Part shown: piece after piece, positions 3,001-33,843 of the stretch | Layout of the letters: each line of letters begins with the position of its first letter | Numbering within the stretch: position 1 is the first letter of the stretch | Position numbers and translations under genes: made by a program | Notes under the pieces: generated by a model | Seen by the model: only the letters and a program-made list of their open reading frames with translations | Databases searched by the model: none | What the model was told of the DNA's origin: nothing | Assembly: GCA_019750255.1 (NCBI GenBank) | Contig: JAIEOU010000006.1 | Span: 52,142 to 116,141, forward strand | Source of the DNA: Patescibacteria group bacterium | GTDB lineage: Bacteria; Patescibacteriota; Minisyncoccia; Phycocordibacterales; UBA918 | DNA length: 64,000 nucleotides | Direction of reading: 5' to 3'

Positions 3001-6000
3001 CTGGTAGAAGCGCGGTAATACAACCGGTACTCAATCGTGCTGGCACCTGGGGTGGCCTCATTCAGGGTTATCTCTTCCCAGCGTGGACCGTCCCCATCGT
3101 CAAAGTCAATGCTTGTCGAACGCATTGATCCTCCCGTGAAAATTGGGTATGTGCGTGCCGCCATATTTGAGGCATTGGTGTACTCGGGATTTGCATCTTG
3201 GCTTGAGTTACCGGTAATGGTGGTAAGAGCACTAAAGCTTCCGGACCAGTCAGAGGCCAAAATGTCGTCATTCGTAAGAGCACCATCATCAAATGCGGTG
3301 ACATGTATCCGACCGTCTCCAGCGCGCACCACCTCCATTTCATATCCGTCAGGCATAGTACTAAGAGGAAGCTCTCCTGACAGCACCGTTGAAAATGTCT
3401 GATAAAACGAAAGCGTGCCGTTGTCTGAGTAGGTAATCATCAGGTTTCCATCCCGACCAGCAGCGGTTTCAAACGCACAATCAATAGGAAGCGCATTATT
3501 GCCGTTAGCAGCTACCGGTTCGACTTCAACCGGTGCATCCCATGATGATCCGTTCCAAAGAGCAAATCCGGAATTATTATCGTTATCAACATAACAGAGC
3601 GCCAAACGATCAGTCCCGACATCTGGCCGCAGTACGCCAAATTCCATATGATCACCAAGCGTTGCGCTACTAGCAACACTCCAGGCTGACCCGTTCCAAG
3701 TTCGAAAGAAAAGCGAGCCTGCTGCCGTTGAGGTGGTAGTTGAAACGACGAGAACGGCTTGATTGCCCGACTCTTCATAGGTGAGGGCCATACCTTCTGA
3801 TTCCGGCTCTACCAGTTCACCAAAGGTAGTAGTCGCAGTCCAGCTACTGCCATTCCATACCATTGCTTCGTAATCCACACCAGCAGCAACCGTGTGTCTA
3901 AAGACGGCAATAATTTCATCCGAAACCGGATCAGAAGCGGCGAGTACCCACTCACAGCTATTTGTATTTACCAGGTTGATTGAGGACGTTGCGGACCACG
4001 AGGTGCCATTCCAGATTGCATAGACTGCGTCAGTGCCAGCACAACTAATTGCCATCAAATCACCTGACGTGGTCTCATACGCAAGATCAACAGCGCGACG
4101 CTCGGCATTGACCACGTTATTAAAGAGCTCGAGGACGTTAGACCAGGTATCGGAGTCACTATTATATATCTGAACATTGACGTCGTTGTCGGTTCCAGTG
4201 GTACCGAGGGCATATTCCGGCCGGGTCGGAGCCGCTTTCAGTCGAACCGTCCGAACCTGAGCTCCAACACTTTCTGCTGTTTGTGCAGCATCCCAGGCTG
4301 TACCATTCCATAAACGATAACGCGGTGCCTGACCCGTCCCCTCACCATAGGTCACCATAACTTCATTCACCACCGTCGAAATCACGGCCGCGCCGGTGGT
4401 TGTAGAAATGTCTTCACGGCTATTGGTAGAGAATTGATCCCCGGTTGTTTGACTCCATACCGATGTTGTTATGGACGTATCAATCGTAAAGCTGCGTGGT
4501 GATGAATACCGAGTCCAGGTATCACTACCTCCAGGATCACGAGCCCGGACTCGCCACCAGTAGGTTGTACCGTTAAGGAGAGGACTTTGGAATTGATACC
4601 GAATTACATTCCCTGTCCTAAACGGAGATGTGTCAGAGCTCGATGCGGTGTTAATGAATCCGCCATCAATTCCCGACAAAAAGGTAGAGGACGAGGTAAA
4701 CAAGGGACTAGTGGATACTTGTACTTCATATCTAATATCTTGACTCTCTGGGTCAGTTGAAGAAAAGGTGACAGCCGGAGTAGTCGTTCCGGATTTTGCG
4801 TTATCAAATAACGTTACCAATGACGGTACAGTTGTCGTTTCTGCCCACGTCACAGTCCAAGCCTGGAGCCTTGGCACTGTGCTGTTTCCGGACAATACTG
4901 CCCTAATACGAAGCTCGTTATATGTAGAAGTGTTTAAGTTAGTCAGCGTTACTGGAGACGAGGTGAAGCCAGCACTGTTTCCAGGCAAGGCTGCATCAGG
5001 GACCAGTGCAAAAGTGTCCCCACCCACACGATACTCAATGTAATACCGAATAGAGCCAGACGTTACGTCGTGCACATAACTGAACGCTCCCCAAGCATTA
5101 CCCGTATCACGATCGTCGTAGTCAATAACGGAAGACGTTACGGTCGCTACTGTAAAACCACTATCGATACCCGTATCATTTGAACTCGTTGATACCACGG
5201 CATCGAATAGAATATTTGTGGCAAACTGCTCGCCGGTAGTCTGGAACCATGTGGTTATCGTAGTTCCGGAATTAACCGTAACACTGGTCGGAACTGACCA
5301 CTCACCGGTTGTATTTGAACCAAAATCATCACGACCCCTTACCCGCCACCAGTAGGTTGTATTGTTTGCGAGCGCAGCATTCGGAATAAAACGGATTGTT
5401 TGTCCGCTCGTATATTGACTACGTTCTGACGGATTAGAGAGGTTAGTAAACAATGCAAAGGTATCGACAGAGTTACGAGTGACTACCGGAGAGCTAAAGT
5501 CAGCCGAGTCATCAATCTCGATTTCATAGGAAATAAGATCACCAAGCGCATCATTGGCGTAAAACTCAAACCACGGTGACGTAGAAGCTGTCTGTTCGTT
5601 ATCAAAAGGGGCTTCATTAATCGGATTAGCTGGTGGCGCGTTGGTAATAAGACGCGGGTAATTCGTGTACGTATTTAGCGTAGCACCGTCGTTATAGACG
5701 AGCCGGAAACAATAGTTAGTATTTGCGGCTGCACCATTATTTTGTAGTGCAAAGTCCCACTCAGCATCGTTGCCGACAACAAGACCATTACGATTAGCAA
5801 GCGTAGGGTTACGTTCTTCATATGTCTCGGCGTAATCTGACGCAGACAAGACAGTGCTTGGCAACACTCTTCCGTCACCAATAAGCTCCTCAGATGAAAC
5901 CGCATAGAAACCGGTAGGATTTGACTGATTAGTTCTTTCAGTCAATATCCAGCCCGCTGATCGCTCAACAGACGCAATGCGGAACTCATCAATTCGACCA

Positions 6001-9000
6001 TCATGGTGATTTCCGCCAGTCGTAAGATCGCTACCGAGCGAAAAGCCGGTCAGGGCGACATTTGGATCATCTGAAATCGTCGAAGTGGCGACCGCAGTAC
6101 CATCTAAGTAGATACCCATAAACCCTGGTGTGGCTACACCGCGTGACACAAGCCCAATATGGGTCCACTTATTGCGAATGGCTGAGTAATTTGTCGTCAA
6201 TCGACCTCCGACACCACAGCAGGTACCATAATCCCAATAAAGCACCGCATCATTCCATGGCGCATGAGTTGCGAGTCGCTCAGTGCCCGACACATTAAAA
6301 CCAAACAGGCTCGCAGTCTTAGTTTCGGCTGTGGACACGTTGTTCCAAGCCGTCACAGTCACAGCATTAGAGGTATTCAGCCATGACCACGCAGTGTTAG
6401 TGAGTCGGTCATTAATCCCATCAAAATCGACACCGTTCCCCATCACACTACTGGTACTCTGGCTCCCCAACATACCACCATTAGTGGTTAGCGTTCTGCC
6501 ATTACTCGTACTATCCGTCAGGTTACTGGCAGGACTTGTCTCTAAGTGGTAAACCGCCTCGTAGCCATTAGTCCAAACATTATTTCGACCGAAGGGAGCG
6601 GTCACCGCATACCCTGAAGCCGACGGATTACCATAGTAAATATAGAACTCAGAATCAGTGCTTGTGGAGAGATCTCCCTTAAAATGAAGCTCACCCATTC
6701 TGGTTGTCGTATTAATCGATACCAGCTCAAATGGGACTTCGGTCAAGCCGTTACTCGTGGTCACTCGTATATCATCACCGTCCGACTGCACCTGAGTAAA
6801 GAAGGAGTCGGGTAGGTCATCGAGGTTTACATAGACCGGAAAATTTGTGATCACTCCACTTACGAGCGATTTGTTTACTGTGATTTTCAATCTTCGTAGC
6901 CACGACGCACTATACCAGTCACTACCAACAATACTATTTTCATAACCCCTCCATAGCGCTGTAGTCGAACTAGTATCTCCCACATCAGCCCACGCCAGGC
7001 CAGGACTACACGTAAAGCCTGGGGCATACTGCAATTTAAATTGCTCGGTCGATGTGGGTTGTATAACATTTGCCCCCCGAAGCGCGATTCGCAAACGAAT
7101 CGCTTCGCTATTACTGACCGCATAGCTCGAGTCAATAGCAGTACTTTCTGCGATGTCTACACCTCCTATAGGCCACGCATCGGTCGGTGTTAGGAAACTA
7201 CCATTGCTATACCAACGGTACGCACTTTGAATAAGTCGAGGTTCGCGAACCCACGACAATATCCAGTCTTCAAGGCTTGCCGACTCACTCCCCTGTGTCG
7301 TCAGGGTTGCTTCAAGACAAATTTGGCTGAACGTAGTCGTCGAAAGCCCAGTGAGGTTAATTGGGGACTGAGTGACATCAAATCCGGCACTGTTGCCCGA
7401 CAGGGCGCCGTTGGGCACATAAGTATCGCACGTCGTCGAGGCGGTATAGCGCAGTCGCAGCTTAACGTCGGTACCAAATGGCTCGCTGGTTGAAAACGTT
7501 ATATCTCCCCACGTCGCTTGGTTTGGTACAAAGTTGAAATTAATTATTGGAGTGCGCACAGTTCCTTGTACGAACTGGAAACGCTTAGCACTCATCGACA
7601 TCGCTTCATAGATACCTCCGGCTGGAATAACCGCCTCGAGTGTCTCGCTCGTTGTCCAACCGCTACCGTTCCAACGGGCAGTATCAAGACGATCATTCTC
7701 GTCGTCGTAATGGAGAGCCATCACAATACCATCGCTGGTACGCTCCGTTTGTACCCATAGCGCATCATTCATGTTTGATCCGGCTTGATTGGTTGTCCAG
7801 CTATTCGTTGTAGTCGAGAATGTTGCATGATAATCACCATCGACGCCCGTATCTGAGTACGGGGCAATGATATTGCCACTGCGTCCTGCCACCGTTTCGT
7901 ACTCACAGTCAATAGGCCGCCCGGTAATCGCGTTACCGGTAGTCGTCAACTCAGACGTCGCTGACCACACTCCCCCATCCCAACGAATTGCTCCGATGTC
8001 AGCATCGGCATCAACATAACAGAGCACAATGGCATCTGAGTCTGGATTTGGTGACAATGACGCATAGTATAGGTCATTTCCTATCCCCTGGGTCGTGTTA
8101 GCACTGAACTCTGATCCGTTCCAGGTGGTATAAGCAAAACTGGCCGCAGTGCCATTAGCCGCCACGATAAGCGCCTGCTCACCCGAACTTTCATAGACGA
8201 CGTCAACCCCCTCGGGCGCAACCGCGGGAGGGACACCAATAATTCGGTTATTCACCCAGGCTGTACCATCCCACACCATCGCCTCATACTGAGTGCCTGT
8301 GTCACGCACAACTACAATTATTTCGTCTGAGGTTGGATCTGAAGCGGCTTGAATGTAGTTACAGTTATTGAGTGAAGAGACGTCGATGGTACTCGTTGCG
8401 CTCCAGGACGAACCGTTCCAGATGCGAAACACTGGGTCCGCACCATTCGTGCACGAAATGGCCATGAGGTCTCCCGACAAACTTTCGTAGGTCAAGGCAA
8501 TACCGCGGTATATGTTACTCGTCAGGACGTTTGAAAGCAGCACTTGATTACCCCACGAACTACTTGAGGCTTGATAAATCTGCGCAAAGGCATCGTTTGA
8601 TTGATCAAGCGTTACCATCGCGTATTCATTACGATTGACTGCCGCTGCCGTTTCTACCCAATTTATGGTGTTACTTACCGCCACCGCATTTAACTCGAGA
8701 CCCCAACTCGTTCCATTCCACAAGCGATACCGAGGCGTCGCCACCGTACCCTCGGCATATGCCGCAAGCAATTCTTGATTGACTGTTGCATCAACCTGAA
8801 TACGATCATTTCCACTACTAACCGTGCCCACAAAACTATTTCCCTCAAACTGACCGTCAAAAGACTGGTACCAGTTAGGCACCGCCACGGCTAGATCCAC
8901 CGTCAGACTTTGTGTTACTGACCAATCACCATACTCCCCAGAGCCTGACACATCCCGGGCACGCACGCGCCAGTAGTAGGTAGCACGGTCAGTCAGGGCA

Positions 9001-12000
9001 TCAGCTGGTTGTAATTGGAATCGAATTGTTTCATTCTCATTGAACGGAGACGTATCTGTTGTTGAAGCAGTGTTGCGGAAACCGGCACTCGACGATGAAA
9101 AGCGAGTGATGCCGTTCGAGAAATCTGCACTGGTAGCAAGGGCAAACTCATAGGTAAGATTCGACGCCCCATCTGGATCAACCGACCTGAAATCAAAGAA
9201 CGGCGTTGTGGAGGCAAACCGAATGTTATCGAACGGGGTGTTAAACGTAGTCGGAGCCGCTGGGCGTTCATCGACGTCTAATTTCTTAGTCAGTGTAATT
9301 ACGGCATCAGTGACGTCATCGGTGGTAGCGTTTGCACCCTCCTGCTCTACCATCACGTTGATGGTGGCGCTAGCAGCAAGGTTCTCTAGCAGAAACACGA
9401 GCACGCCCGAGCTGTTGTCGTGTGCGTTCTGACCACGCACGTAATGTGATTTTGTTTGGGCACCAGATACAGCAACACCATTGACCTCGACCGTAATACG
9501 CGTATTTGCGTGCTGAGTACCCGAGATAAGGGCATTGTTGTAGGTGAGCAGATAGGTGCCGGCTTGATCAACAATAATATCGTCATTATTCGTCGTTGTT
9601 GAATGTGTAAAGGCGGCTTCATCTTTGATGACAGACGTATCAAACAGGAGCGACTCCCGCGGCGAATCACTCCAGTCAATACCTCCCGATAGGTTACGCC
9701 CGCGGAGCACAATCGTGTCGGCTGTGGTCATCTTTTCAATATAAATTGAACCAACAAAGCCGGTAGAGGTGGAAACAGTCACGGTTCCTGTATTTGCTTC
9801 ACGTTCTGCCGTGATCGTGAGCACCTGATTTGTGGTGGTTGCCACAACCACACCTGACCAATGCAGTGATGAATTAAAGTCGGCATCAGCATCTGCATTT
9901 GCTGCCGTATAAGCTTGCGAAAATACTCCACCAGAGACTTGCACGCCATTAAGAAGGACTCTGCCGAGAATATTCTGGTTTGAAGTAGTGTCGCCAGTAA
10001 CCGGGACACTCAGGTGAACCCGATAGGTGCCGGGGTTCAAAATAGTAATATTCTCCGGCGATATCGTATTTGAGTGTATATATCCAGCGTCTTGTCTCGT
10101 TTCGGTCCACTGGAACGGAAACGGGGTGACCTGATTGAGGTTCGTTGAGTTTGTGGTGCGCGTAGTGGTCGCCGCAAAAACATCATTGGTCGGCTGTACA
10201 TACTCAACGTACATACTCGCCTGCCCTGAAACATTAACAATATCGGTTACTTCAATTGTTCCAAGACCCTGCACCTGCACCGTTACCTCATCACCCGCCT
10301 GTGCGCCACTCAACATAAACTGAGCATGTGAAGACGATTCGGAATGACTATTGGCATTACGTATAAATCCACTCCGTCCAAGACCTTGCGGTACGGCCAC
10401 ACCATTTACACGCACCTCGACACCAACACGACTGCGACTGGCAGCACCGTCAGTTCGGGTCATCGGAAGCGTCACGGCCATGAAATAATCACCCGACTGT
10501 CTCAGGGTGACCGTCTGCGAGTTCGTAGAGGTTGAATGGGAAAAGTAATACGAGTCAACGGTCGAGGTGCTCCACTGTAGTGGGCTGGCGGCATTATTAA
10601 GGTTCGTACTGCCAACTGTTCTCGTTCCAGTAAACCACCCAATACCCGAAAGCGCGTCGGAAGCTATCTGCCAGCTACGCAATTCTCTAAAGCCATCCAT
10701 ATCCAGCGGACCGAGTAGGTAGGTATACGGACTAAGATCAGGAGCATCAAAGCGGTAGCTGAACGTCCGCTTTTCACCCTCCTTGAGTTCAACCGCTTTC
10801 CACACGAGCTCAGTAAAATCCGGTCGAGATACGACCTCAGCACCGCCAGTATCTTCAAACACAAAACCTCGGGGCACTCGCTCTACAATATCCCCGACAA
10901 AACTGCGACGCGCCTCCACCGTAATTGCAACGTCATACGCCGCCAACGGATAAATACGCGTAGGCGCGGTACGCTCAATGTCGAACGGAATATACTCATG
11001 CACCTCGAAGAAATCTTCGATTACATGAACAACGGAACCGGCAGCATTTCGGTGGGTTAGCTGAACGGTATACCGTCCAGGCGTGTTGGTGTCACCAAAC
11101 TGTGACTCGTAGTCTGGAATATTCGTCACGTTATTCTTCCCACAAGCTCCCGACTGCACAACCGGAACTTCAGATATTGCATTATTGGGATCAATAATTT
11201 TTAACTCAAGATTGGCATCACAAATTGTGTCGCCTCGATCAGTCAAGGCGGCCATCTGGAGACGCACCCGCTCTCCCGGTCCATACATCGTTTTTGTGCT
11301 ATTGACCGCCAGCACTCCCCAGTAAAATTCAAATGAATCTACATAAATATGGTCGTTTTCATTAATAGAAATTGAAAGCGCGTATTTCCCAGCAACGAGT
11401 TTCTGCGGGCGGCCCTTAAAGTGCACTATCCAGGTTGTCTCGTCATGATATTCGATAGATACAGGCACATCGACCACTTCGCCAAAAGCATCAGTCAGCC
11501 GTACTGAGTCAACGCTGTAGATGTTTTCACTAAAGACAGCATTCCACATCCGGCGTAAGAAGCCATCTTGGGGAGCGTAGCTGAGAGTAAACGATGGAAG
11601 CGAACTAAGCGTCTGATCAATGTCAGGATTATGCAGCCCATGGAACTTAGGCAGGGCCAAATCGCGCTCATAGGTTATCTGGTCAGTCGTACTCGCGAGA
11701 CTAGCATCCTCGTAAAAACTTCCCGCCGTCACCTCGAGCCAGACACTCTCCACATACGCCGACTCCATCGCCTCGAGGTTACCCTCAAAGACGACTCGCA
11801 CCTCTAAGTTGGATAAGTCCGCAAGCTGTGGTGGTGTTTCAAAAGAAATGAGGTAATAACCCCCGTTAATACCATTGGAAACTTCATCTTCTACATCAAT
11901 AATTGATGCGACTTTAAATTCAGTCGTACTACCGTATCTGAACTCAATAGAAAAGCGCTGGGGACCACTGTAATCCGTTGCTGAGTTTCTTTTTGCTGCT

Positions 12001-13049
12001 AAAGACAACCGCAGTTGAGCATTATCAAGAACACTAGCCCCATCAAACTCGGGTAGAGTAAAGCCACTGAAACTGACCGGGTACTTACCGCACCCATCCT
12101 CCGCCTCACAAGCCGGAATACTTGCAACAAACTCTCCTGCACCGAGTGCTGGTCCAGACGGTACAACGCTCGTCTCAGCTGGTGCGATTTCGTTGACATT
12201 CGCAACTTCGCTATCACCACCAGCTTCGTCTTCTCCATCTATACCCTCATCTGCGGAAAAACTTTCTATAGCTGAGGATTCCTCATCCACTACCGGAACG
12301 CTCTCCAGCTCACCATCAAGAACCAGAACCTCTTCATTCACGAGCGGTACTTCATTAGGCGCTAACAGCGCTGGTTCCGCAGTAATTTCGGTCGGTTCCG
12401 ATTGTGACTCGGCATCGACGGCTGCTTCAGACACTTCTTGGGCATGCGGAAAAACGCCCCGACTAGTGGGAAACACTCCCCACACTATCGACGAATCACT
12501 CGGTACTCTAACTTGTGGTTCGGTCACCGGATCTGGCGACGGCGCGGGCTGTGGTTCAGTGTCGCTCGGAACCTCATTCACCGACTCCTCCACAATAGGC
12601 TCGGGTCGTTCCGCTTGAGGTAGAGCGGCTGCATCGGGTTGTACCGACCCTTCACCTTCGCTCTCTTCCACAGGAACCTCTACTGACTGTCCGCCTTCCG
12701 AATAAACCGAATCAATCGATACGCCCACTCCCTCTCCCGATGGACTACCATCCAGAGCAGGGGCAGACTCATCACCCCCACTCTCATTAGAAATCTGAGG
12801 CGTGACCACGGGGTAGGCAGCATTACCAGCGTTGAACTCTTGATACAACGCATATTCGCCAACATCCTGAACGAGAACCGACTCGATACCGGTCCAACTT
12901 GTCGTCTCTACCACTCCAGGAATCAATACGAGTTCAGTGGTTGTGTATACCGTTGTATCAATCGTCGCGTATACCAAAATTCCTCCGATGAAACACGGTA
13001 TGAGCAGCACCCAAGCGTAGGTGTGAAGGAGGGCTTTTTTAATAGTCAC
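1..13049 (-). CDS. Giant secreted/surface adhesin-like protein (>4,340 aa, 3' end runs off the left window edge). It has an N-terminal signal anchor, an acidic Pro/Glu-rich linker, a DUF2341-like module plus a LamG-type jelly-roll, FN3-like modules ending in 'TYYWRVRARD', and many beta-propeller-like repeats with 'WNG[ST]xW' signatures.
   Basis: Hand translation of the minus strand from a GTG at ~13049 gives a continuous reading frame to position 1. The ORF track shows no minus-strand fragments in this frame, and that is what you would expect if the ORF is open at the window edge and therefore not reported. The N-terminus 'VTIKKALLHTYAWVLLIPCFIGGILVYA' is signal/TM-like. The motif 'FYIYYGNPSAS' fits DUF2341, and 'GRIDEFRIASVERSAGWI' fits a LamG_3 fold. 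The repeated 'TYYWRVRARD/TYWWRVRGRD' matches an FN3 C-terminal strand. Repeated 'RYRLWNGTSW', 'VFRIWNGSSWSAT' and 'AMVWNGSSWTA' appear as recurring ccgttcca/ccattcca motifs on the plus strand. An upstream in-frame stop sits at 13086-13088. Confidence 0.6.
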   Translation of the reverse strand, partial: MTIKKALLHTYAWVLLIPCFIGGILVYATIDTTVYTTTELVLIPGVVETTSWTGIESVLVQDVGEYALYQEFNAGNAAYPVVTPQISNESGGDESAPALDGSPSGEGVGVSIDSVYSEGGQSVEVPVEESEGEGSVQPDAAALPQAERPEPIVEESVNEVPSDTEPQPAPSPDPVTEPQVRVPSDSSIVWGVFPTSRGVFPHAQEVSEAAVDAESQSEPTEITAEPALLAPNEVPLVNEEVLVLDGELESVPVVDEESSAIESFSADEGIDGEDEAGGDSEVANVNEIAPAETSVVPSGPALGAGEFVASIPACEAEDGCGKYPVSFSGFTLPEFDGASVLDNAQLRLSLAAKRNSATDYSGPQRFSIEFRYGSTTEFKVASIIDVEDEVSNGINGGYYLISFETPPQLADLSNLEVRVVFEGNLEAMESAYVESVWLEVTAGSFYEDASLASTTDQITYERDLALPKFHGLHNPDIDQTLSSLPSFTLSYAPQDGFLRRMWNAVFSENIYSVDSVRLTDAFGEVVDVPVSIEYHDETTWIVHFKGRPQKLVAGKYALSISINENDHIYVDSFEFYWGVLAVNSTKTMYGPGERVRLQMAALTDRGDTICDANLELKIIDPNNAISEVPVVQSGACGKNNVTNIPDYESQFGDTNTPGRYTVQLTHRNAAGSVVHVIEDFFEVHEYIPFDIERTAPTRIYPLAAYDVAITVEARRSFVGDIVERVPRGFVFEDTGGAEVVSRPDFTELVWKAVELKEGEKRTFSYRFDAPDLSPYTYLLGPLDMDGFRELRSWQIASDALSGIGWFTGTRTVGSTNLNNAASPLQWSTSTVDSYYFSHSTSTNSQTVTLRQSGDYFMAVTLPMTRTDGAASRSRVGVEVRVNGVAVPQGLGRSGFIRNANSHSESSSHAQFMLSGAQAGDEVTVQVQGLGTIEVTDIVNVSGQASMYVEYVQPTNDVFAATTTRTTNSTNLNQVTPFPFQWTETRQDAGYIHSNTISPENITILNPGTYRVHLSVPVTGDTTSNQNILGRVLLNGVQVSGGVFSQAYTAANADADADFNSSLHWSGVVVATTTNQVLTITAEREANTGTVTVSTSTGFVGSIYIEKMTTADTIVLRGRNLSGGIDWSDSPRESLLFDTSVIKDEAAFTHSTTTNNDDIIVDQAGTYLLTYNNALISGTQHANTRITVEVNGVAVSGAQTKSHYVRGQNAHDNSSGVLVFLLENLAASATINVMVEQEGANATTDDVTDAVITLTKKLDVDERPAAPTTFNTPFDNIRFASTTPFFDFRSVDPDGASNLTYEFALATSADFSNGITRFSSSSAGFRNTASTTDTSPFNENETIRFQLQPADALTDRATYYWRVRARDVSGSGEYGDWSVTQSLTVDLAVAVPNWYQSFDGQFEGNSFVGTVSSGNDRIQVDATVNQELLAAYAEGTVATPRYRLWNGTSWGLELNAVAVSNTINWVETAAAVNRNEYAMVTLDQSNDAFAQIYQASSSSWGNQVLLSNVLTSNIYRGIALTYESLSGDLMAISCTNGADPVFRIWNGSSWSATSTIDVSSLNNCNYIQAASDPTSDEIIVVVRDTGTQYEAMVWDGTAWVNNRIIGVPPAVAPEGVDVVYESSGEQALIVAANGTAASFAYTTWNGSEFSANTTQGIGNDLYYASLSPNPDSDAIVLCYVDADADIGAIRWDGGVWSATSELTTTGNAITGRPIDCEYETVAGRSGNIIAPYSDTGVDGDYHATFSTTTNSWTTNQAGSNMNDALWVQTERTSDGIVMALHYDDENDRLDTARWNGSGWTTSETLEAVIPAGGIYEAMSMSAKRFQFVQGTVRTPIINFNFVPNQATWGDITFSTSEPFGTDVKLRLRYTASTTCDTYVPNGALSGNSAGFDVTQSPINLTGLSTTTFSQICLEATLTTQGSESASLEDWILSWVREPRLIQSAYRWYSNGSFLTPTDAWPIGGVDIAESTAIDSSYAVSNSEAIRLRIALRGANVIQPTSTEQFKLQYAPGFTCSPGLAWADVGDTSSTTALWRGYENSIVGSDWYSASWLRRLKITVNKSLVSGVITNFPVYVNLDDLPDSFFTQVQSDGDDIRVTTSNGLTEVPFELVSINTTTRMGELHFKGDLSTSTDSEFYIYYGNPSASGYAVTAPFGRNNVWTNGYEAVYHLETSPASNLTDSTSNGRTLTTNGGMLGSQSTSSVMGNGVDFDGINDRLTNTAWSWLNTSNAVTVTAWNNVSTAETKTASLFGFNVSGTERLATHAPWNDAVLYWDYGTCCGVGGRLTTNYSAIRNKWTHIGLVSRGVATPGFMGIYLDGTAVATSTISDDPNVALTGFSLGSDLTTGGNHHDGRIDEFRIASVERSAGWILTERTNQSNPTGFYAVSSEELIGDGRVLPSTVLSASDYAETYEERNPTLANRNGLVVGNDAEWDFALQNNGAAANTNYCFRLVYNDGATLNTYTNYPRLITNAPPANPINEAPFDNEQTASTSPWFEFYANDALGDLISYEIEIDDSADFSSPVVTRNSVDTFALFTNLSNPSERSQYTSGQTIRFIPNAALANNTTYWWRVRGRDDFGSNTTGEWSVPTSVTVNSGTTITTWFQTTGEQFATNILFDAVVSTSSNDTGIDSGFTVATVTSSVIDYDDRDTGNAWGAFSYVHDVTSGSIRYYIEYRVGGDTFALVPDAALPGNSAGFTSSPVTLTNLNTSTYNELRIRAVLSGNSTVPRLQAWTVTWAETTTVPSLVTLFDNAKSGTTTPAVTFSSTDPESQDIRYEVQVSTSPLFTSSSTFLSGIDGGFINTASSSDTSPFRTGNVIRYQFQSPLLNGTTYWWRVRARDPGGSDTWTRYSSPRSFTIDTSITTSVWSQTTGDQFSTNSREDISTTTGAAVISTVVNEVMVTYGEGTGQAPRYRLWNGTAWDAAQTAESVGAQVRTVRLKAAPTRPEYALGTTGTDNDVNVQIYNSDSDTWSNVLELFNNVVNAERRAVDLAYETTSGDLMAISCAGTDAVYAIWNGTSWSATSSINLVNTNSCEWVLAASDPVSDEIIAVFRHTVAAGVDYEAMVWNGSSWTATTTFGELVEPESEGMALTYEESGNQAVLVVSTTTSTAAGSLFFRTWNGSAWSVASSATLGDHMEFGVLRPDVGTDRLALCYVDNDNNSGFALWNGSSWDAPVEVEPVAANGNNALPIDCAFETAAGRDGNLMITYSDNGTLSFYQTFSTVLSGELPLSTMPDGYEMEVVRAGDGRIHVTAFDDGALTNDDILASDWSGSFSALTTITGNSSQDANPEYTNASNMAARTYPIFTGGSMRSTSIDFDDGDGPRWEEITLNEATPGASTIEYRLYYRASTSLFTLVPDAVLPGNSVGFGSGPINISSLDTSIFNELQLDAQFICVAGNCPSLNEWAVEWSEGITVSGSAREFDGIATTTSGTVAVAVNGVLQAGKTGSITATGTWSVSNVSAFAGDTITVFVDGATDANEAVGVTTYDGIGNVTNMELTKRHLTIGSDDGATTTNAQFAGFDNVDDEDLFFTVGVGDVLTVCVEAVCGDGRLKVRSGSVYQPGALVATHDFANFGTFRPATNTLRISGSYNQQGTFIEDTSTILFTATSGTETLTATGTQYSFFNLSFGEASSTASYVLSRSLDVNGSLTITHGTLARATSTITVAGNLAIGFGGTMSGIATTTFDGTGSNTWGDSKASSTNIGFAVIDGAAKTITLSANVGAQSVTIGGDDTLNASGSGFNISVFQNWTNNNAFVAQGGTVTFVGTSTSGTISRGVSAFNNLSFTGAGSSWSFATATLVVSGSLSIATGTVTLPTGTTTIAGSFTNNGIFLHNNGEVRMTSTVAGRTITQSATVFNNAFYDLVFTGSGAWSFTESAATTSRNFRITAGTVTFPGGTLTVGGDFLTTGTGVFAHNNGEVILLVQQANTVSTNGSSFNNLRTRGSSGSWYGSGWTKRISVTVQSSQVPTTLTDFPVYINLSNLPDAFFSGVRSDGGDIRMTTADGVTEVPVEVVAINTVAKTGEVHFKAPTISSSTNTVFYVYYGNASAATNTASSTFGRNNVWTNGYEAVYHLETIPTGLMVDSTQNARNLTSFGAMDGSDSVPAVLGNGIDFDGVNDYLANAGFVWPNASNTITVTAWNNVSTAETKNANLFGFTESGGQRIAAHGPWGDAVLYWDFGTAGVPGRVTTSYASYRDKWTHMGLISPGAGGGNMSIFLDGAFIASSAAGDPSATLTGFSLGSLGASQYHDGRIDEFRIASVARTGGWMTTERNNQASSTTFYAVSGEELRRQRTFTDSNAVILGNFVLETGGDATFPNGTLSVGGSFDNDATFAANGGTVRFNSTAGAETI

Positions 13050-13101
13050 GTTACACAACCACCGCACTCCAAATGGAATGAGGGGCTATTTTAAATTATA
13101 A

Positions 13102-13135
13102 GCGACACGCCTCCCAGAAATGGGAGGCGTGTCGC
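13102..13135. terminator. Intrinsic terminator hairpin (stem gcgacacgcctccca / tgggaggcgtgtcgc, loop gaaa) flanked by A/T-rich sequence. It lies downstream of the cohesin-like gene and immediately upstream of the giant gene start.
   Basis: Perfect 15-bp inverted repeat seen directly in the sequence. The minus-strand side is followed by ttataatttaaaat. Confidence 0.6.
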
Positions 13136-13161
13136 TAAATTCTGGGGATGAATCCAGAAAC

Positions 13162-14706
13162 TTACTTTAGTATTGATTTTACATCACTGATTTCCTTTTC
13201 AATCAATGTTTCAGACACTTCAAGCGCCTGGGTCAATCCTTCAACTGCAATGCGCTCGTTCTTGGAGAGTCGCTTCTGCTTGGTGATCATATTTACCTGA
13301 TCATAGATTTCGTCTCGTAGCGCTGAGAATATTTTCTCCATTTGATCTTGAATCTCTCGCGTCTCCTTGCGCAATTTCTCTTCCTTAATACGCAGTTGCT
13401 TACGTTCATACCACATATATATGAGCTGTAATATCACGACAACAATGAGGAAGAAAATGAGGAGATTGACCGCGGTGAAGTAATCCCAAATCGACGTCAC
13501 GTCCTCTACTTCAAGCGGTTTGACCCAGCCTGACTGAATGAGTACCGCCTTGCTTCCCTCTCGCTTGTTGCCCGCCTTGTCGAATGCATCAATCTTTACA
13601 GTGTAGGTCCCATCCTCTAATTCCTTAAGTAGGTATCCGAGCTTAGCTTCATCTGGAGTAACTCTAATTGGTTCCTTGTCAGCAATCGTCATCTCGTAGT
13701 AATCAATCCCTGAAGTGACGTCCATCGCTTCAAAGGTAAGAAGTGGGAAGTCGGTCGGTAGCGTGCCGGGTACTACCAGTATTTCAAACGGTTCAGGTGG
13801 CGTGGTATCGATGCGTAGCTTTCGGTTAAGGATTCCGCCCCACCCAACTTGGTTCTGATACTGAATGCTAAAATATTGTTCACCATCGACAATCAGACCC
13901 TTATTAATGACAAACTCATCAATTGGTGGGTCATAAATCGCGTTTTGGTTCTTTGAGGGATCGTTATCTGACGAGGTGGCAATTTCAATCGCTACAGCAG
14001 TCACATCAAACGGCAATGTCCAAGTAAACACGCCGTCAGTTGATTTGTACCAAATCTCAGGATCGAGGAAGATTTGTGAACCGACTTCAGGAGCCCGTGG
14101 GGGATCTCCAAAGATAATCGCCTCTTCGCTTTCCTCCTCTTCTGCTTCTGGCTCTGCTGTTGGTGTGGCGGGAGGAGTTGCAGGCGGTGGCGGAGTGGCG
14201 GTAGCACTAATGGTAAAACTGCCCTGCGTCGAGTTTTCAAATACGTCCGTCCCCCGACCATCAGCCGCCAGCACCGAAGCACTAGAGAACGTAACAGCTG
14301 CGGTACCAGCCGCAACAGTTCGGAACGTAACGTTAATTAAATTTGATGTAGCAGTAAAGGGTGTGGGGCTACCACCACCAAAAGTAACAGTACCGGCAGT
14401 GTTTGAAAACGCAGGCTCAGTTGTCCATAAAGAAAATACCGAACCGTCTTTACTGACACTCACCACACTGAGAAGAGTGGGGTCGAACTTCAGTGCGGCT
14501 TCAACCGCGTTTACATTTGCACCACCGGGCGCCACACGAATGGTGGCGGTGAACGTCTGGCCAATGTTGTACGTACCCGTCGACGGTGCGATCACAACGT
14601 CAGCAGCAAAAACCGGGTTAACCCACACATGCGCTGCAGCGATGAATAAAAAAGCAACAAACAGATTTATGCAGACCTTACGTGATAAAGAAAAGAACGA
14701 AGTCAT
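13162..14706 (-). CDS. Cohesin-like domain membrane protein. It has a signal peptide, an N-terminal cohesin/Ig-like beta-sandwich, a Pro/Thr then Glu-rich linker, a second extracellular domain, a single TM helix and a cytoplasmic coiled-coil tail.
   Basis: The 514-aa ORF includes 'IGQTFTATIRVAPGGANVNAVEAALKFDPTLLSVVSVS', which matches the cohesin-domain pattern. The linker is 'TPPPPATPPATPTAEPEAEEEESEE'. The TM helix is 'AVNLLIFFLIVVVILQLIYMWY', followed by a K/E-rich heptad tail. Confidence 0.7.
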   Translation of the reverse strand: MTSFFSLSRKVCINLFVAFLFIAAAHVWVNPVFAADVVIAPSTGTYNIGQTFTATIRVAPGGANVNAVEAALKFDPTLLSVVSVSKDGSVFSLWTTEPAFSNTAGTVTFGGGSPTPFTATSNLINVTFRTVAAGTAAVTFSSASVLAADGRGTDVFENSTQGSFTISATATPPPPATPPATPTAEPEAEEEESEEAIIFGDPPRAPEVGSQIFLDPEIWYKSTDGVFTWTLPFDVTAVAIEIATSSDNDPSKNQNAIYDPPIDEFVINKGLIVDGEQYFSIQYQNQVGWGGILNRKLRIDTTPPEPFEILVVPGTLPTDFPLLTFEAMDVTSGIDYYEMTIADKEPIRVTPDEAKLGYLLKELEDGTYTVKIDAFDKAGNKREGSKAVLIQSGWVKPLEVEDVTSIWDYFTAVNLLIFFLIVVVILQLIYMWYERKQLRIKEEKLRKETREIQDQMEKIFSALRDEIYDQVNMITKQKRLSKNERIAVEGLTQALEVSETLIEKEISDVKSILK

Positions 14707-14708
14707 AT

Positions 14709-15176
14709 TTATACAGGCCGCGAAGCACGCTTCTCTTGAGTAACTCGCAATCGCACCCTTTCTTTCTCCTCCGGCTTCAGTAGTGGGAGCGTTAATATTA
14801 AAACACCATTTTTTATCTTTGCTTCCGCTTTCTCAATGTCTACACTCTCCGGCAATATAATACGTCGGTAGAAATCTCCCCAAATACATTCCTCAGCCAC
14901 AAACGCACCCTGCACTTTCTTCTTCGGAAAAACTAAATATTCAGGGCGCACTCTCCTGCCCTCAATAAGAATGATATCTGCGTCGCCTTCAATCGAAACA
15001 TGCACGTCATTCATATCAGCGCCAGCTGATTGGGCATACACGACAATCAAACGGTCACTTTGAAATACATCAACATCAAGTTGGGCAACTTTATCAACTG
15101 CAGTTTCTTCCGCTGCTGATTGTAGCGCGTCGCCGGATTTAACACCTCTACCTTTGAGTCGCTGCAGAAAGGACAT
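14709..15176 (-). CDS. Small heat-shock protein, Hsp20/alpha-crystallin family
   Basis: 155-aa ORF with an alpha-crystallin domain and the signature 'GVLILTLPLLKPEE'. Its stop is 2 nt from the start of the cohesin-like gene. Confidence 0.8.
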   Translation of the reverse strand: MSFLQRLKGRGVKSGDALQSAAEETAVDKVAQLDVDVFQSDRLIVVYAQSAGADMNDVHVSIEGDADIILIEGRRVRPEYLVFPKKKVQGAFVAEECIWGDFYRRIILPESVDIEKAEAKIKNGVLILTLPLLKPEEKERVRLRVTQEKRASRPV

Positions 15177-15354
15177 ATGTGTACAGTATATGGTATTGCA
15201 TAGTTTTTTACGTTACGTTTACCCACAGACATAATAAAGTTTAACCACCTTTCTTTTCGAACGAAGCGATGCAATCCAATGCCGCCTTAGCACGTCGCAG
15301 CCACTCGTTATACATACATCAACGCAAGGACGTTACCGGCTAAAGTATAGACAT

Positions 15355-15398
15355 GCAGGTTGCCGCCACTACTTTACGCGCTTTGATGCGCAAAAGTA
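15355..15398. terminator. Imperfect hairpin (cactactttacgcgc ... gcgcaaaagtagtg) downstream of the dockerin protein gene; possible terminator
   Basis: Inverted repeat seen in the sequence. There is no strong T-tract, so confidence is low. Confidence 0.3.
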
Positions 15399-15555
15399 GT
15401 GACAAGGAGAGCTAAGGAGACCGTAGGTCGACTACAGCTTCCTTGGTCAAACACTTCAATATATTCGACCTTCAGAGGGAGAATATATTGACTTAGTGTT
15501 TGTAGGCAACTGACGAAGTAAACTATAGTCGGCCTACGGCCTCGTTAGTTCCACT

Positions 15556-17466
15556 TCAACCGGTCCAATTGAATAGCAGAATCGAGAAGTCGGTCAAGTT
15601 TACCCGCGTATCGCCGTTTATATCAGCCGGAGGACTGGAATCACCACCACTGGTAGACCACCAGAAGAGGAGAATAGAGAAGTCGGTCAAGTTAACCCGA
15701 CCGTCAGTATTCAAATCCGCGTTCATGCGACGGTCCGCTGTTTCCCCCACTCCGTAGAGTGTGTAGTTAGAAAAATTGGTTGCCAAGGTACCCTCTCCAA
15801 CCGCCCGCGCTCGAACTTTATACGTTCCGTTTGAAAATCCGGCCGTATCGAGTGGAATTGACCAAGCCCCGCCAGCGTCACTTGTTGCGGTTAGGACCTT
15901 ACGCGACGCGACACTTCCCTGCTTTTCGTTTTCAATGGTAATAGTGGCGTTAGGCATTGCATAACCCGACAACGTAGCCGCCGTTCCCGGCGTAACTGGA
16001 TCGGGGGAAACCTTAATCGATGGGGCGACATTAATATTCGAAAGCGCTGTGGTGCGGGCACCACTTACGGTGAACGACGTACTGAACGTACTGGACTTAA
16101 CTTGAGCCGCATCGGTAGCAAACACACCGAATGTGTACACTCCCCGCGCAATCTGGTCTATCGTGGCCGAGTACGAGCCTGTATTTCCAGCGGTTACCTG
16201 AGCAGCTTGTTTACCATCAACCAACACAGTGACCCTCGCTCGCGGAAACGCAAAACCAGTGATTTCTACCCGACCGTCCCCACTGCGGAAAGGTCCGTCG
16301 GTAGACTCAAAGCCTCCTCCAGCCGTGCTCCCGGAACCAGGTCCACGTCCACCCCCACCCCCACCCCCGGCCCCGCCCGTTCCCGACGACCCACCAAGTT
16401 CCGGAGCCTCGCCGTTGGACTCGCCGGTGGTTCCTCCAGCTCCACCTCCATCTCCCGTTCCATTATTACCTTGACCGCTACCATCACCAGAAACCGCACC
16501 GGCAGTGTTAGCCTGACCAGTCGGAACGTCGTTTACGGAAAACTGAATCAAGAAGTCATCGGTGTTAAAGTTCCCTTCATCATCCATACAGCGCACGTAG
16601 TAACGCTGCACCGAATTTGGAATGATTGTAACAATGGTGGAATGGAAAATGAGTCCCGTATTTGCGAACGTTGACGGCATGGCACCATAGGCGACGCTCG
16701 AGGAAGCGGAAAACTTACAAATCGCTAACTCATCAGTTTCTAGACTTATTTCTACACTAAGGGTTGTCCCACCCACCGTACTCGTTGGAGTGGGATTAAA
16801 ACGAAATGGAGGGATGGTTTCAGTTGTATCAACAGGACCGACCCCCACGCGTTCAACGATGGCAATTGAAAAACCGGCGTTGGCAACTTCTGTACCGTCA
16901 TAAATCCGAACATCCACCACGTGCGTTCCCGCCACACTACTATTCACCACTCCTGGTGTATCTTCAGGGGTCGTGGACGTGCCGGTAGTGGTACTAAATG
17001 ATTCACTAAAAACCGAAGACATTGACGTGTGGTCACCAATCTTTAACTCTAGCCTACTCCCGGCTGAAAGACCGACTGTTGGTTCCAGTGTGTACCGGAT
17101 CATTCCCGGTGTTCCCGGAAAAATTTCAACCTGGTCAACACCTGGTGAAGCGACCACGTCCGCCGTGCGCAGGGTGCCATCCACAATCAGCTCGACGTTG
17201 CGCTCATTAAATGAGCTACTGGCAATCACCTCAAACCCGGGCGGCGGTACGACCTCGATGTAGCCACCGGGAGATACGGCCGTATCGAGACGAAAGGCAA
17301 GAGTATGGTTAGCCAGGAAGGTTGGGGCGGAGGTTGAAATCGTATCTTTGTATTCGTTGATATTGCGCGCCTGTAATAATCCGGGAAATAGCGAAAAGGC
17401 CCAGATAAAAGCTAAAAAACTACAGGCAAATAATCCCGCCCATAATTTAGCGACTGTACTTCTCAT
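15556..17466 (-). CDS. Dockerin-containing secreted surface protein (signal peptide, beta-sandwich domains, Gly-rich linker, C-terminal type-I dockerin with two Ca-binding repeats)
   Basis: The C-terminus carries 'ADLNTDGRVNLTDFSILLFWW' and 'ADINGDTRVNLTDFSILLFNWTG', which is the dockerin duplicated DxNxDGxVNxxD repeat. The Gly-rich linker is 'GGGAGGTTGESNGEAPELGGSSGTGGAGGGGGGG'. The start is set at the internal Met 'MRSTVAKLWAGLFACSFLAFIWAFSL' (signal peptide, rc ATG at 17464-17466). The ORF track's upstream Met at 17565 adds 33 non-signal residues. Confidence 0.75.
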   Translation of the reverse strand: MRSTVAKLWAGLFACSFLAFIWAFSLFPGLLQARNINEYKDTISTSAPTFLANHTLAFRLDTAVSPGGYIEVVPPPGFEVIASSSFNERNVELIVDGTLRTADVVASPGVDQVEIFPGTPGMIRYTLEPTVGLSAGSRLELKIGDHTSMSSVFSESFSTTTGTSTTPEDTPGVVNSSVAGTHVVDVRIYDGTEVANAGFSIAIVERVGVGPVDTTETIPPFRFNPTPTSTVGGTTLSVEISLETDELAICKFSASSSVAYGAMPSTFANTGLIFHSTIVTIIPNSVQRYYVRCMDDEGNFNTDDFLIQFSVNDVPTGQANTAGAVSGDGSGQGNNGTGDGGGAGGTTGESNGEAPELGGSSGTGGAGGGGGGGRGPGSGSTAGGGFESTDGPFRSGDGRVEITGFAFPRARVTVLVDGKQAAQVTAGNTGSYSATIDQIARGVYTFGVFATDAAQVKSSTFSTSFTVSGARTTALSNINVAPSIKVSPDPVTPGTAATLSGYAMPNATITIENEKQGSVASRKVLTATSDAGGAWSIPLDTAGFSNGTYKVRARAVGEGTLATNFSNYTLYGVGETADRRMNADLNTDGRVNLTDFSILLFWWSTSGGDSSPPADINGDTRVNLTDFSILLFNWTG

Positions 17467-17675
17467 ATATATGTATTGTACCGTGCTACAAAACGAAACC
17501 ACCCCGTCATGCACAGTGAGCAGAAGCAAGGAGGGCGAAGGACGACTATTGTTTTGCTTATGCAAGCGCTTCAGCAGATTCTACTTTTAAGAGGAGAATA
17601 TGCTGGTAGCGACTTGCCTAGTAAAGTGAGTTATGTGTGACAATAGCAACACATCGGCCGATGCACTAGAAACTC

Positions 17676-19481: not shown

Positions 19482-20306
19482 TTACCGTACACAGCGAAAT
19501 CCAATCGCCTCCCCAGTAAACTCTGGTGGAGTATGGGCATGAACAGCATGCACACCAGCGTCTGCTCGACTTCCGTAAAATCCGCCCCGAATCATCCCAT
19601 AATTTCCTTGCGGTTCAGACCAAAAATAGGCAGTCCCGTATACATTTCCGGCACTCTCGTCACTCGTCATTATGGCCACTCCGCTGACATCAGCTTGCGC
19701 CACATACCCCGATGGCGGGAGTGGCCGATCACGAAACTGCCCCGCCACCACATCATCTTCTACCCACTCCCAGACGTTACCAACCGCATCATACACTCCC
19801 GCTGCCGAACGACAATCTGACGCCTCACCCGTCTTCCCGACCGCACCGGTTGCCGTACGACACGCACTCTCTTTGGTATCAAGCGCAAGCGTGTACCATT
19901 CAGCAGCGGTTGGTAACCGCTTGCCGGCTCGGGCGCACAGACGTTGTGCATCACTGCGCGCTACCGAACGCCACGGAACCGCTCCGGGTACACTAGCGAT
20001 CCCACATGCAGCCGCTTCGATATTGCTACTAGTATCAAGTGATCGTGAGGGTTCCGGATGTGGACAGTCACTAAGGGCAGAGGCTTCATATTGATCCGCA
20101 CACACAAATGTCCTTCCGGTTGCGACCTCAACCATCCCGTCGGGACAGACCCCATCATTTGTACTACCAATAAGCTGGGCAAGCATGGTTGACTGTGATC
20201 CGCGCCACGTGTCTGAAGCATCGATACCAAGCGCCGTAATAACGAGCGCACCCATGATAACCCCAATTATTCTTAGTTGTTTCATAACTAGAGAGACAGT
20301 GCGCAC
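19482..20306 (-). CDS. Secreted/membrane-anchored FGE-sulfatase (SUMF1/formylglycine-generating-enzyme) fold protein, paralogue 1
   Basis: The sequence carries 'GKRLPTAAEWYTLA', 'AVGNVWEWVEDD', 'MIRGGFYGSRADAG' and 'IGFRCVR', which are hallmark FGE-sulfatase domain motifs. It has an N-terminal signal/anchor. An alternative start Met8 at 20285 would remove the overlap with the upstream paralogue. Confidence 0.8.
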   Translation of the reverse strand: MRTVSLVMKQLRIIGVIMGALVITALGIDASDTWRGSQSTMLAQLIGSTNDGVCPDGMVEVATGRTFVCADQYEASALSDCPHPEPSRSLDTSSNIEAAACGIASVPGAVPWRSVARSDAQRLCARAGKRLPTAAEWYTLALDTKESACRTATGAVGKTGEASDCRSAAGVYDAVGNVWEWVEDDVVAGQFRDRPLPPSGYVAQADVSGVAIMTSDESAGNVYGTAYFWSEPQGNYGMIRGGFYGSRADAGVHAVHAHTPPEFTGEAIGFRCVR

Positions 20307-33540: not shown

Positions 33541-33843
33541 ATGTATGTACAAGCGTCATATACCGTTGTTTTCATTGCGCATGGATGTTTAAAGGTTGCT
33601 TTACTCGGACTGACATTAGTAGAAAAAATTATGCCAAGAAAAGTTACTAAGACACGCAAGACTTCTTCTCTTACCCTCCTTTATAGTGGCGTAGCTCTGG
33701 CAACCCTAGCGCTAGCCTACTTTGCAATCACTCGCATTGATACCCTCACCTACAAAATTGTAGTGGTTTTCCTTTCTCTCATTATTTTATCTAATTGCGC
33801 CGCCAAATTGTATGGCCGGCATGTTTTAAACGAGAACATATGA
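33541..33843 (+). CDS. Small two-TM membrane protein translationally coupled to the GT2 synthase (possible PgaD-like accessory subunit)
   Basis: The ATG at 33541 has a GAAAGGGG RBS 8 nt upstream. Two hydrophobic helices are present. The TGA stop overlaps the ATG of the next gene (ATGA at 33840-33843). A paralogue lies at 36599..36817. Confidence 0.55.
   Translation: MYVQASYTVVFIAHGCLKVALLGLTLVEKIMPRKVTKTRKTSSLTLLYSGVALATLALAYFAITRIDTLTYKIVVVFLSLIILSNCAAKLYGRHVLNENI

Follow-up and report, generated by a model that had tools for sequence, protein, structure and literature searches.

The described systems closest to the one reported here are cohesin-dockerin pairs, among which OlpA and OlpC of Clostridium thermocellum are anchored to the wall via S-layer homology (SLH) repeats and display glycoside hydrolases. 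Non-cellulosomal cohesin and dockerin modules, many of them with no known partner, are said to have been described by Peer et al. in 2009. Two further proteins share parts of the architecture considered below: the holozoan TMEM132 combines a cohesin homologue with tandem immunoglobulin (Ig) domains, a single-pass transmembrane helix and a conserved tail that was proposed to couple to intracellular structures (PMC6030884), and SEML1_0315 of the saccharibacterium Southlakia epibionticum is a surface protein with Ig/FN3-like domains and a dockerin, found to be essential by transposon sequencing (Tn-seq) (PMC10633639). In the present study, we analyzed a stretch of 64,000 nucleotides (hereafter the window) from contig JAIEOU010000006.1 of a Patescibacteria group bacterium, in which a predicted membrane protein with a cohesin module (COH), an Hsp20 family protein and an Ig-rich protein ending in a dockerin (DOC) are encoded side by side, next to the gene of a giant protein. 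We consider it moderately probable that COH and DOC form a cohesin-dockerin tether, representing a lineage-wide envelope module of Paceibacteria-type Patescibacteria.

The COH gene (13162..14706, minus strand; 514 aa, called as an open reading frame (ORF) and characterized by Pfam and AlphaFold2) encodes a product that matches the Pfam Cohesin family (PF00963) with an E-value of 6.5e-07 and 30.1 bits (cut-off 24.1) over residues 44-164, i.e., profile positions 9-137 of 139, and a precomputed match to the same family exists for 115 of 120 COH homologues. In the AlphaFold2 model, built on 28 homologues and reaching a predicted local distance difference test score (pLDDT) of 77, the N-terminal half displays a signal-peptide helix (residues 3-27), a nine-strand beta-sandwich (35-167) and a disordered Pro/Thr/Glu linker (177-199), and the C-terminal half consists of two Ig/FN3-like domains (~225-390), a transmembrane helix continuing into a long helix (412-475) and a second helix (482-513). 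According to this model, COH would be a type-I membrane protein with a signal peptide (aa 1-34) and a single cohesin (aa 35-167; 14206..14604, minus strand) that forms the N-terminal end of the mature chain, distal to the membrane. Two Ig/FN3-like stalk domains follow (aa 200-392; 13531..14109, minus strand), recognized from AlphaFold2 strands, a weak Big_13 match and fold matches, then a transmembrane helix (aa 412-434; 13405..13473, minus strand) with a basic stretch after it, as expected from the positive-inside rule, and finally a cytoplasmic helical tail (aa 435-514; 13165..13404, minus strand) delimited in our COH alignment (A1).

When the COH model was compared with the PDB using Foldseek, cohesins ranked best, with target-normalised TM-scores of 0.70-0.76, root-mean-square deviations (rmsd) of 2.6-3.0 A and a probability of 1.00, at identities of 10-25% in the cohesin alignments. 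The top match was the C. perfringens cohesin-FN3 tandem (2w1n, E-value 2.6e-10); CaCohA2 (6kgf/6kge) was aligned with a target-normalised TM-score of 0.74-0.76 and an rmsd of 2.6 A, and further cohesin matches included C. cellulolyticum Coh1 (1g1k/2vn6, 25% identity), 2vn5, OlpC (4dh2), 3ul4 and the Archaeoglobus fulgidus cohesin 2xdh. FN3 and Ig arrays were also among the fold matches. At the sequence level, the COH profile retrieved from the PDB a SiiE-type Ig motif (D.AGN, 2yn3, E-value 5e-05), and a match of the transmembrane helix and tail to ATP-synthase b' (E-value 0.07) was judged to be coiled-coil noise. Within the extracellular part of COH, the model-assigned strands 3, 5, 6 and 8, together with the 8-9 loop, are the best conserved, their mean entropy being 0.70 bits versus 1.22 for the opposite sheet (Mann-Whitney p ~9e-4); in solved type-I complexes, it is cohesin strands 8, 3, 6 and 5 that make up the dockerin-binding face. 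The most conserved part of the whole protein is nevertheless the cytoplasmic tail, with 38 invariant positions out of 80, an entropy of 0.47 and a mean identity of 85%, versus 68% for the cohesin. Its consensus in alignment A1, KEEKLRRETREIQDQMEKIFSALRDEIYDQ...LS..E..AVEGL.QALEVSETLIEKEI.DVK.ILK, includes a motif, IFSA[LM]R.E...P.L[ST]..E...L.EALD[IV]SE, that is still recognizable in homologues with ~30-38% overall identity.

The DOC gene (15556..17466, minus strand; 636 aa, ORF and Pfam) begins at an ATG at 17466, which orthologue alignments favour over an upstream TTG at 17565. Its product carries a signal peptide (aa 1-33) and four Ig-like beta domains (34-205, 236-312, 397-476 and 477-575), the second and third of which are joined by a disordered, Gly-rich linker (313-396), and it ends in a dockerin; Pfam assigned Big_6 and Big_13 as well as Dockerin_1 (PF00404) with an E-value of 5.7e-07 and 30.1 bits (cut-off 22.9), and 118 of 120 DOC homologues also carry PF00404. 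The duplicated type-I-like dockerin occupies the extreme C-terminus (aa 584-636; 15559..15717, minus strand), with the Ca2+-loop motifs DLNTDGRVNLTD (aa 584-595) and DINGDTRVNLTD (aa 615-626) 31 residues apart. Each repeat is made of a DxNxDGxVNLxD loop (D584-L-N-T-D-G-R-V-N-L-T-D595 and D615-I-N-G-D-T-R-V-N-L-T-D626) followed by a putative DFSILLF(W/N)W helix, and the protein ends 10 residues after the second loop. Calcium-ligand positions 1, 3, 5 and 12 are intact in both loops, and they are invariant or conservatively replaced by N/S across 60 orthologues. The near-identity of DFSILLFWW and DFSILLFNW resembles the internal symmetry of dual-binding type-I dockerins. A phmmer search with the 69-aa C-terminal segment retrieved the C. 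thermocellum type-I dockerins 4fl4, 1daq and 2mte (E-values 1.6-1.8e-05), the alignments spanning both repeats. In addition, the dockerin is the most conserved region of DOC, with 29 of 53 positions invariant among 53 orthologues and a mean entropy of 0.44, versus 1.1-1.7 bits elsewhere. The best fold matches of DOC were generic multi-Ig proteins, including S-layer proteins, with low TM-scores.

These results agree with a preliminary description of this DNA, which had placed a cohesin protein and a dockerin protein side by side with an Hsp20 gene between them (all three genes were recovered at the positions it gave, on the minus strand). Its duplicated type-I dockerin at the end of DOC and its N-terminal cohesin in COH both scored above the curated Pfam cut-offs in the hidden Markov model (HMM) search that it proposed (PF00404, 30.1 versus 22.9 bits; PF00963, 30.1 versus 24.1 bits), with matches to solved dockerins for the one and a cohesin fold for the other, and its membrane anchor and coiled-coil cytoplasmic tail correspond to the transmembrane helix and long helices of the model. 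It had also called the context non-cellulolytic, in agreement with the fact that the modules of DOC other than the dockerin are all Ig-like and that the window yielded no cellulase, carbohydrate-binding module (CBM) or multi-cohesin scaffoldin, and it had rightly placed the cluster next to the giant adhesin and the FGE-fold proteins.

On the minus strand, the order of transcription is as follows: three membrane-anchored paralogues with an FGE-sulfatase domain (21151-22002, 20288-21112 and 19482-20306), an MsbA-like ABC exporter (17676-19469), DOC, Hsp20 (14709..15176, 155 aa), COH and the giant ORF (3..13067), which starts near 13067, exceeds 4,355 codons and leaves the window at its left end; the FGE and exporter genes were assigned with Pfam and NCBIfam. 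Database entries 100% identical to window proteins derive from a Patescibacteria metagenome-assembled genome (MAG; locus tags K2Q16_02770 and K2Q16_02780, on a 123-kb contig). We scanned one genome per GTDB species with alignment A1, which yielded 109 positive species, and 80 loci were retrieved and compared with the window proteins by tblastn. Hsp20 lies directly upstream of COH in all 74 loci with enough flanking sequence (Hsp20 identity 67-100%), in 68 of 68 loci COH has the giant gene downstream, and a DOC orthologue with a double dockerin is located upstream in 59 of 61, the exceptions being L048, where it is truncated or masked, and L057, which lacks it there. Genes further upstream are variable, since FGE genes were found in 27 and the ABC exporter in 16 of 56 loci. 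Four distant homologues were considered in addition. L116 (38% identity) shows DOC with a double dockerin, a 205-aa ORF, Hsp20, COH and a second COH paralogue; L117 (35%) shows the DOC C-terminus, Hsp20, COH and a large ORF; and in L115 (30%) neither DOC, Hsp20 nor the giant gene stands beside the COH homologue. Hsp20 thus adjoins COH homologues down to 31-38% identity, and DOC-Hsp20-COH recurs at 35-40% (L116 and L117). Taken together, the distant contexts indicate that the DOC-COH link is old but that the deepest link is that of Hsp20 with COH. There is strong support for a functional link between the COH and DOC genes, as they remain neighbours in 59 of 61 loci at species level and again at 35-40% identity. 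Note that the second COH-like gene of L116 (4209-4622), which bears a cohesin, follows COH immediately.

The COH family itself is large. More than 1,165 homologues were found in the database, the best 120 being full-length and 64-87% identical, and the named entries among these 120 are labelled Paceibacterota, Kaiserbacteria or Pacebacteria. A HMMER search of 1.84 billion cluster representatives (E-value <= 1e-30) gave 1,186 clusters at 50% identity, many of which retain the full architecture at 30-50% identity. Size variants also occur in the family: ~350-aa proteins without the cohesin but with the Ig domains, transmembrane helix and tail, and proteins of ~580 and 800-900 aa. As to the sources, many MAG titles are at odds with a Paceibacteria-type cluster, such as 'uncultured Candidatus Saccharibacteria bacterium' (L013, L014 and L018 among them) or, in one case, 'Legionellaceae bacterium' (L045), and these titles likely reflect mislabelling by submitters or a mis-binned contig.

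The Hsp20 gene product matches Pfam HSP20 (PF00011) with 43 bits (cut-off 20.8) over its alpha-crystallin domain (aa 43-141). It scores far under the cut-offs of the NCBIfam equivalogues Hsp20, Hsp14 and Hsp18, so that it is a member of the Hsp20 family to which no named orthologue can be assigned. The protein is without a signal peptide and hence cytoplasmic, and its N-terminal motif MSFLQRLK is conserved; such conservation is unusual, as the N-termini of small heat-shock proteins (sHSPs) are normally variable. In the form M(S/A)FLxRLK, the motif persists in homologues with ~45% identity (L114, L116 and L117). Hsp20, which the preliminary description treated as a bystander, turned out to be the most constant neighbour of COH (74 of 74 loci, and beside homologues at 31-38% identity), and its stop codon is separated from the COH start by 2 nt in the window.

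The same description regarded the genes as one operon, and on this point the non-coding sequences argue otherwise. A promoter-like element precedes Hsp20-COH (15185..15226, minus strand), composed of GTGGGTA (15226-15220) and a -10-like TATACT (15190-15185), which ends 8 nt before the Hsp20 ATG in the window. Among the relatives, GTGGG[TA]A is found at -48 to -52 before Hsp20 in 55 of 75 loci, against a background of 0.012 per 80 nt, and of the 69 loci having a TATAAT-like hexamer, 44 have it ending 8 nt before the ATG; the element can be written as GTGGGTAA/TATAAT. This arrangement suggests that Hsp20-COH is expressed as a leaderless or near-leaderless bicistronic mRNA. Conservation within the DOC-Hsp20 spacer, which is 379 nt long in the window, is confined to the stretch immediately preceding Hsp20. 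On the other side, the 94-nt spacer between COH and the giant gene (13068-13161) contains a perfect 16-bp hairpin (13101..13136, minus strand) followed by UAUAAU, and it folds with -42.2 kcal/mol (z -7.8). An equivalent strong hairpin was found in 76 of 79 loci, with compensatory changes in all 7 consensus pairs; its interior varies and co-varies and its outer TATA(A/C)CGCG arms are conserved in sequence, with AATCC[AC]CA before it and a conserved TATAAT and a GCCCC...GGGG element after it. No Rfam match was obtained for this hairpin, and a generic promoter and terminator scan of the window stayed at background level, with this hairpin as the sole exception. It is likely to be the terminator of the Hsp20-COH unit, with the TATAAT as the -10 box of the giant gene, and alternatively it could serve that gene as a cis-regulatory 5' element. 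Altogether, the promoter-like element before Hsp20, the unconserved gap after DOC and the hairpin with TATAAT before the giant gene point to separate units rather than one operon, and the cluster is best seen as a conserved neighbourhood with probably at least three transcription units. We also observed that the motif after COH (AATCCACA), when read as its reverse complement TGTGGATT, is similar to GTGGG[TA]A, and the motifs after COH and before Hsp20 may be sites of one regulator or sigma factor.

As the cluster is kept across many species beside Hsp20 and the giant gene, it most likely builds a part of the cell surface unrelated to cellulose. From the domain identities, topology, synteny and pattern of conservation observed above, we infer, with good support, that COH and DOC are a cognate pair and that cohesin and dockerin bind each other. 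After cleavage of the signal peptide, COH would expose its single cohesin on a flexible Pro/Thr linker and a two-Ig stalk, held in the membrane by its C-terminal helix. DOC would be secreted and its Ca2+-dependent dockerin would plug into the COH cohesin, so that a non-covalent bond would hold an Ig-like chain of 600 residues on the cell, as a coat or a layer for attachment, next to the membrane-anchored giant adhesin-like protein of ~7,000 residues; the layer may have an S-layer or attachment role. On the inner side, the near-invariant tail of COH would bind a conserved cytoplasmic partner, for which the best candidate, judging from gene context, is the presumably co-transcribed Hsp20-like protein. 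Such a contact would make COH an envelope-spanning connector.

Several observations weigh against this tether. At the sequence level, PDB cohesins were missed by phmmer with COH residues 31-170 (E-value <= 10) and by the A1 profile (E-value <= 1), and cohesin membership consequently rests on the Pfam profile and the fold; the module appears to be a divergent cohesin, and the missing pairwise match is compatible with membership. A different conserved ligand would account just as well for the constraint on the 8-3-6-5 sheet. In the AlphaFold2 model, residues 581-636 of DOC have a pLDDT <50 and no helices, where an F-hand fold would have two, which is probably due to the near-invariant alignment of this segment and the absence of Ca2+ from the model. 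The mutual information between dockerin and cohesin columns is indistinguishable from the phylogenetic background. As an example, K73 of COH (strand 3) is among the top two COH positions for the variable dockerin positions 594 and 623, but not significantly so; we rejected column-wise mutual information as evidence of pairing, because phylogeny dominates it and is tracked by the few dockerin positions that vary, and because the top positions are spread over all domains. DOC also appears to be transcribed separately from Hsp20-COH. Finally, DOC is missing at its usual position in L057, which reads FGE x3 - Hsp20 - COH - giant, and in the distant homologue L114 (31% identity), which reads Hsp20-COH-giant.

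The last two loci also speak for a different account, in which Hsp20, COH and the giant protein would be the core: COH with its cytoplasmic sHSP would anchor, chaperone or position the giant protein, the cohesin would bind the giant protein or the FN3 protein encoded downstream, and DOC would be a lineage-specific accessory whose dockerin binds something else. The trio is indeed present in every locus with sufficient flanks (74/74 and 68/68) as well as in L057 and in the 31%-identity L114, both without DOC at its usual position, and Hsp20-COH owns its promoter-like element. Against it stands the giant protein itself, which has its own N-terminal transmembrane anchor and whose gene is parted from COH by the strong conserved hairpin. 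This protein contains Laminin_G_3, an Ig domain (Ig_Rha78A_N) and several DUF2341 domains; extrapolating from the offset of the match, the full gene would have roughly 7,000 codons, and orthologues with gene calls measure 5,507 and 7,538 aa. Its N-terminal 1,200 aa as a query returned 4 truncated proteins and nothing else. We read its C-terminal half in orthologous metagenome loci (L084-L098), which were reached by a scan with the last 600 aa present in the window, and found it to end with ...YWGIAVP.G..S..H.G.N.FTP; the genes after it encode a conserved FN3 protein of ~500 aa, whose C-terminus is ...FVLFTPIQEKNIIDLILENFESTFGWVKNI, and an ABC ATPase. Both the 4,355 aa encoded in the window and the C-terminal part of the orthologues (3,243 aa) were free of dockerin motifs and Pfam dockerin matches, and the giant protein was rejected as a dockerin bearer. 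In addition, a canonical, near-invariant dockerin is encoded two genes away from COH in 59 of 61 loci. We regard a core without DOC as rather unlikely. Note that in three species, at L016 (~20671), L019 (~20219) and L072 (18490-18494), the giant ORF resumes after a break caused by a frameshift or by one in-frame stop, which could reflect assembly error, pseudogenisation or recoding.

It is also conceivable, though we judge it unlikely and give it somewhat less credit than a core without DOC, that the cohesin and the dockerin are not mutual binders at all, their adjacency reflecting a conserved envelope neighbourhood in streamlined genomes and the dockerin serving as a Ca2+-binding stabiliser or binding host-cell or glycan ligands. 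Modules with no known partner are numerous among non-cellulosomal cohesins and dockerins (Peer et al. 2009, as cited by others), the essential Ig-rich dockerin protein SEML1_0315 of Saccharibacteria has neither a cohesin nor an Hsp20 gene beside it, and synteny at our loci reaches well past these genes, to FGE and ABC. These points have to be set against the pattern of conservation, as the dockerin is the best-conserved segment of DOC and the canonical binding sheet of the cohesin is selectively conserved, and against the recurrence of the pair at 35-40% COH identity among different surrounding genes. Moreover, neither module has another candidate partner nearby: no second cohesin or dockerin was detected among the other large ORFs of the window, and no convincing dockerin motif beyond that of DOC was found in 83 related loci (~1.4 Mb), which gave three single, unduplicated chance matches. 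That the domain calls are false, i.e., a generic beta-sandwich and a chance EF-hand-like repeat, is highly improbable, for although the two modules score modestly in Pfam (30 bits each), phmmer with the cohesin segment misses the PDB cohesins and the dockerin is not folded by AlphaFold2, both modules exceed the gathering cut-offs and recur in 115 of 120 and 118 of 120 homologues, cohesins dominate the fold matches (target-normalised TM-scores of 0.70-0.76), and the dockerin aligns with solved type-I dockerins over both repeats with the correct spacing. A cellulosome or amylosome was rejected as well, since COH has a single cohesin and no CBM and DOC bears no enzyme.

Beyond the cluster, functions related to the envelope and to glycans are densely represented in the window, which may also encode other surface-filament systems. 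It holds two GH18 (chitinase-like) and two GT2 (chitin/cellulose-synthase-like) genes together with CAP, M23 and LD-carboxypeptidase genes (27246-28499, 33795-36495 and 38313-39728), and the two GH18 proteins are dockerin-free. A 416-aa protein (23650-24900) weakly matches, with 23.4 bits for a cut-off of 55, the NCBIfam model of the C-terminal domain of the Pam pilus pilin from Candidate Phyla Radiation (CPR) bacteria, and the gene of a sortase and those of two DUF11 surface proteins lie near it (30435-31058, 31526-33004 and 36803-38311); neither cohesin nor dockerin is involved in the paper on the CPR Pam pilus. A second very large protein of 2,284 aa (54492-61346, minus strand) combines Kelch-like repeats with a Peptidase_S74 domain ('chaperone of endosialidase') at the C-terminus, a domain typically seen in the tail fibres and spikes of phages, and its gene is preceded by a Pfam-negative 860-aa ORF (61359-63941, minus strand). 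Neither tRNAs nor Rfam families were found in the 64 kb.

CPR bacteria represent a large share of bacterial diversity and are host-attached, with surfaces that are almost wholly uncharacterised, and full-text literature searches on cohesin or dockerin in Patescibacteria, CPR or Parcubacteria returned no description of the COH-DOC cluster. In the literature searched, a transmembrane receptor format of the cohesin-dockerin system is likewise not described for bacteria. Although known non-cellulosomal pairs limit the surprise, the COH-DOC tether is a good testable lead in a poorly understood phylum, given how broadly it is conserved, its transmembrane format, its invariant tail and its link with the giant protein. 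This presumed module pair can be expressed in the laboratory and is retained in no fewer than 109 genomes at species level and in over 1,000 sequence clusters. It would give an experimental handle on how CPR surfaces are built, as binding could be assayed, antibodies or tags could be used in imaging, and uncultivated cells could be captured by affinity. A more far-reaching proposal, which we put forward tentatively and think rather doubtful, is that Hsp20-COH-giant plus DOC make up an undescribed envelope-spanning apparatus, a hallmark of Paceibacteria-type CPR, in which the cohesin-dockerin lock would tether an Ig-domain surface lattice (possibly the S-layer of these ultra-small cells) beside the 7,000-residue adhesin, and the sHSP-held tail would couple surface or host contact to the cytoplasm, mechanically or by signalling.

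Compared with the described systems, COH would by analogy work most like OlpA/OlpC and the C. perfringens and A. fulgidus pairs. As in OlpA and OlpC of C. thermocellum (3ul4 and 4dh2), whose cohesins are among its best structural matches (target-normalised TM-scores of 0.70-0.72), one type-I-like cohesin on a surface protein would tether an individual dockerin protein; in contrast to them, COH is anchored by a transmembrane helix, possesses a conserved cytoplasmic tail and has a presumed cargo that is purely Ig-like. The C. perfringens GH84C/mu-toxin complexes (2w1n) and A. fulgidus (2xdh) likewise offer cohesin-dockerin pairs outside cellulose degradation, and the 2w1n cohesin-FN3 tandem mirrors the order of cohesin and Ig/FN3 domains in COH. 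However, their modules reside on secreted enzymes or soluble proteins, do not form a lineage-wide syntenic cluster and are without the combination seen at COH, where a transmembrane anchor bearing a conserved cytoplasmic tail occurs together with a neighbouring sHSP and a giant protein. TMEM132 shares with COH the layout of cohesin, Ig domains, transmembrane helix and conserved tail, an analogy of architecture alone, but is without a known dockerin partner. SEML1_0315 resembles DOC in architecture, being a Patescibacteria surface protein that is rich in Ig/FN3-like domains, carries a dockerin and is free of enzyme domains, and differs in belonging to Saccharimonadia, in its length of 927 aa and in having neither an Hsp20 nor a cohesin gene adjacent. 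The use of cohesin and dockerin called unusual in the preliminary description is therefore novel in architecture and lineage, and familiar in being non-cellulosomal, as this was already established for C. perfringens and Archaeoglobus: non-cellulosomal cohesin-dockerin pairs were known before, and what is new here is a single cohesin anchored by a transmembrane helix, with a tail that is conserved and an sHSP as constant neighbour.

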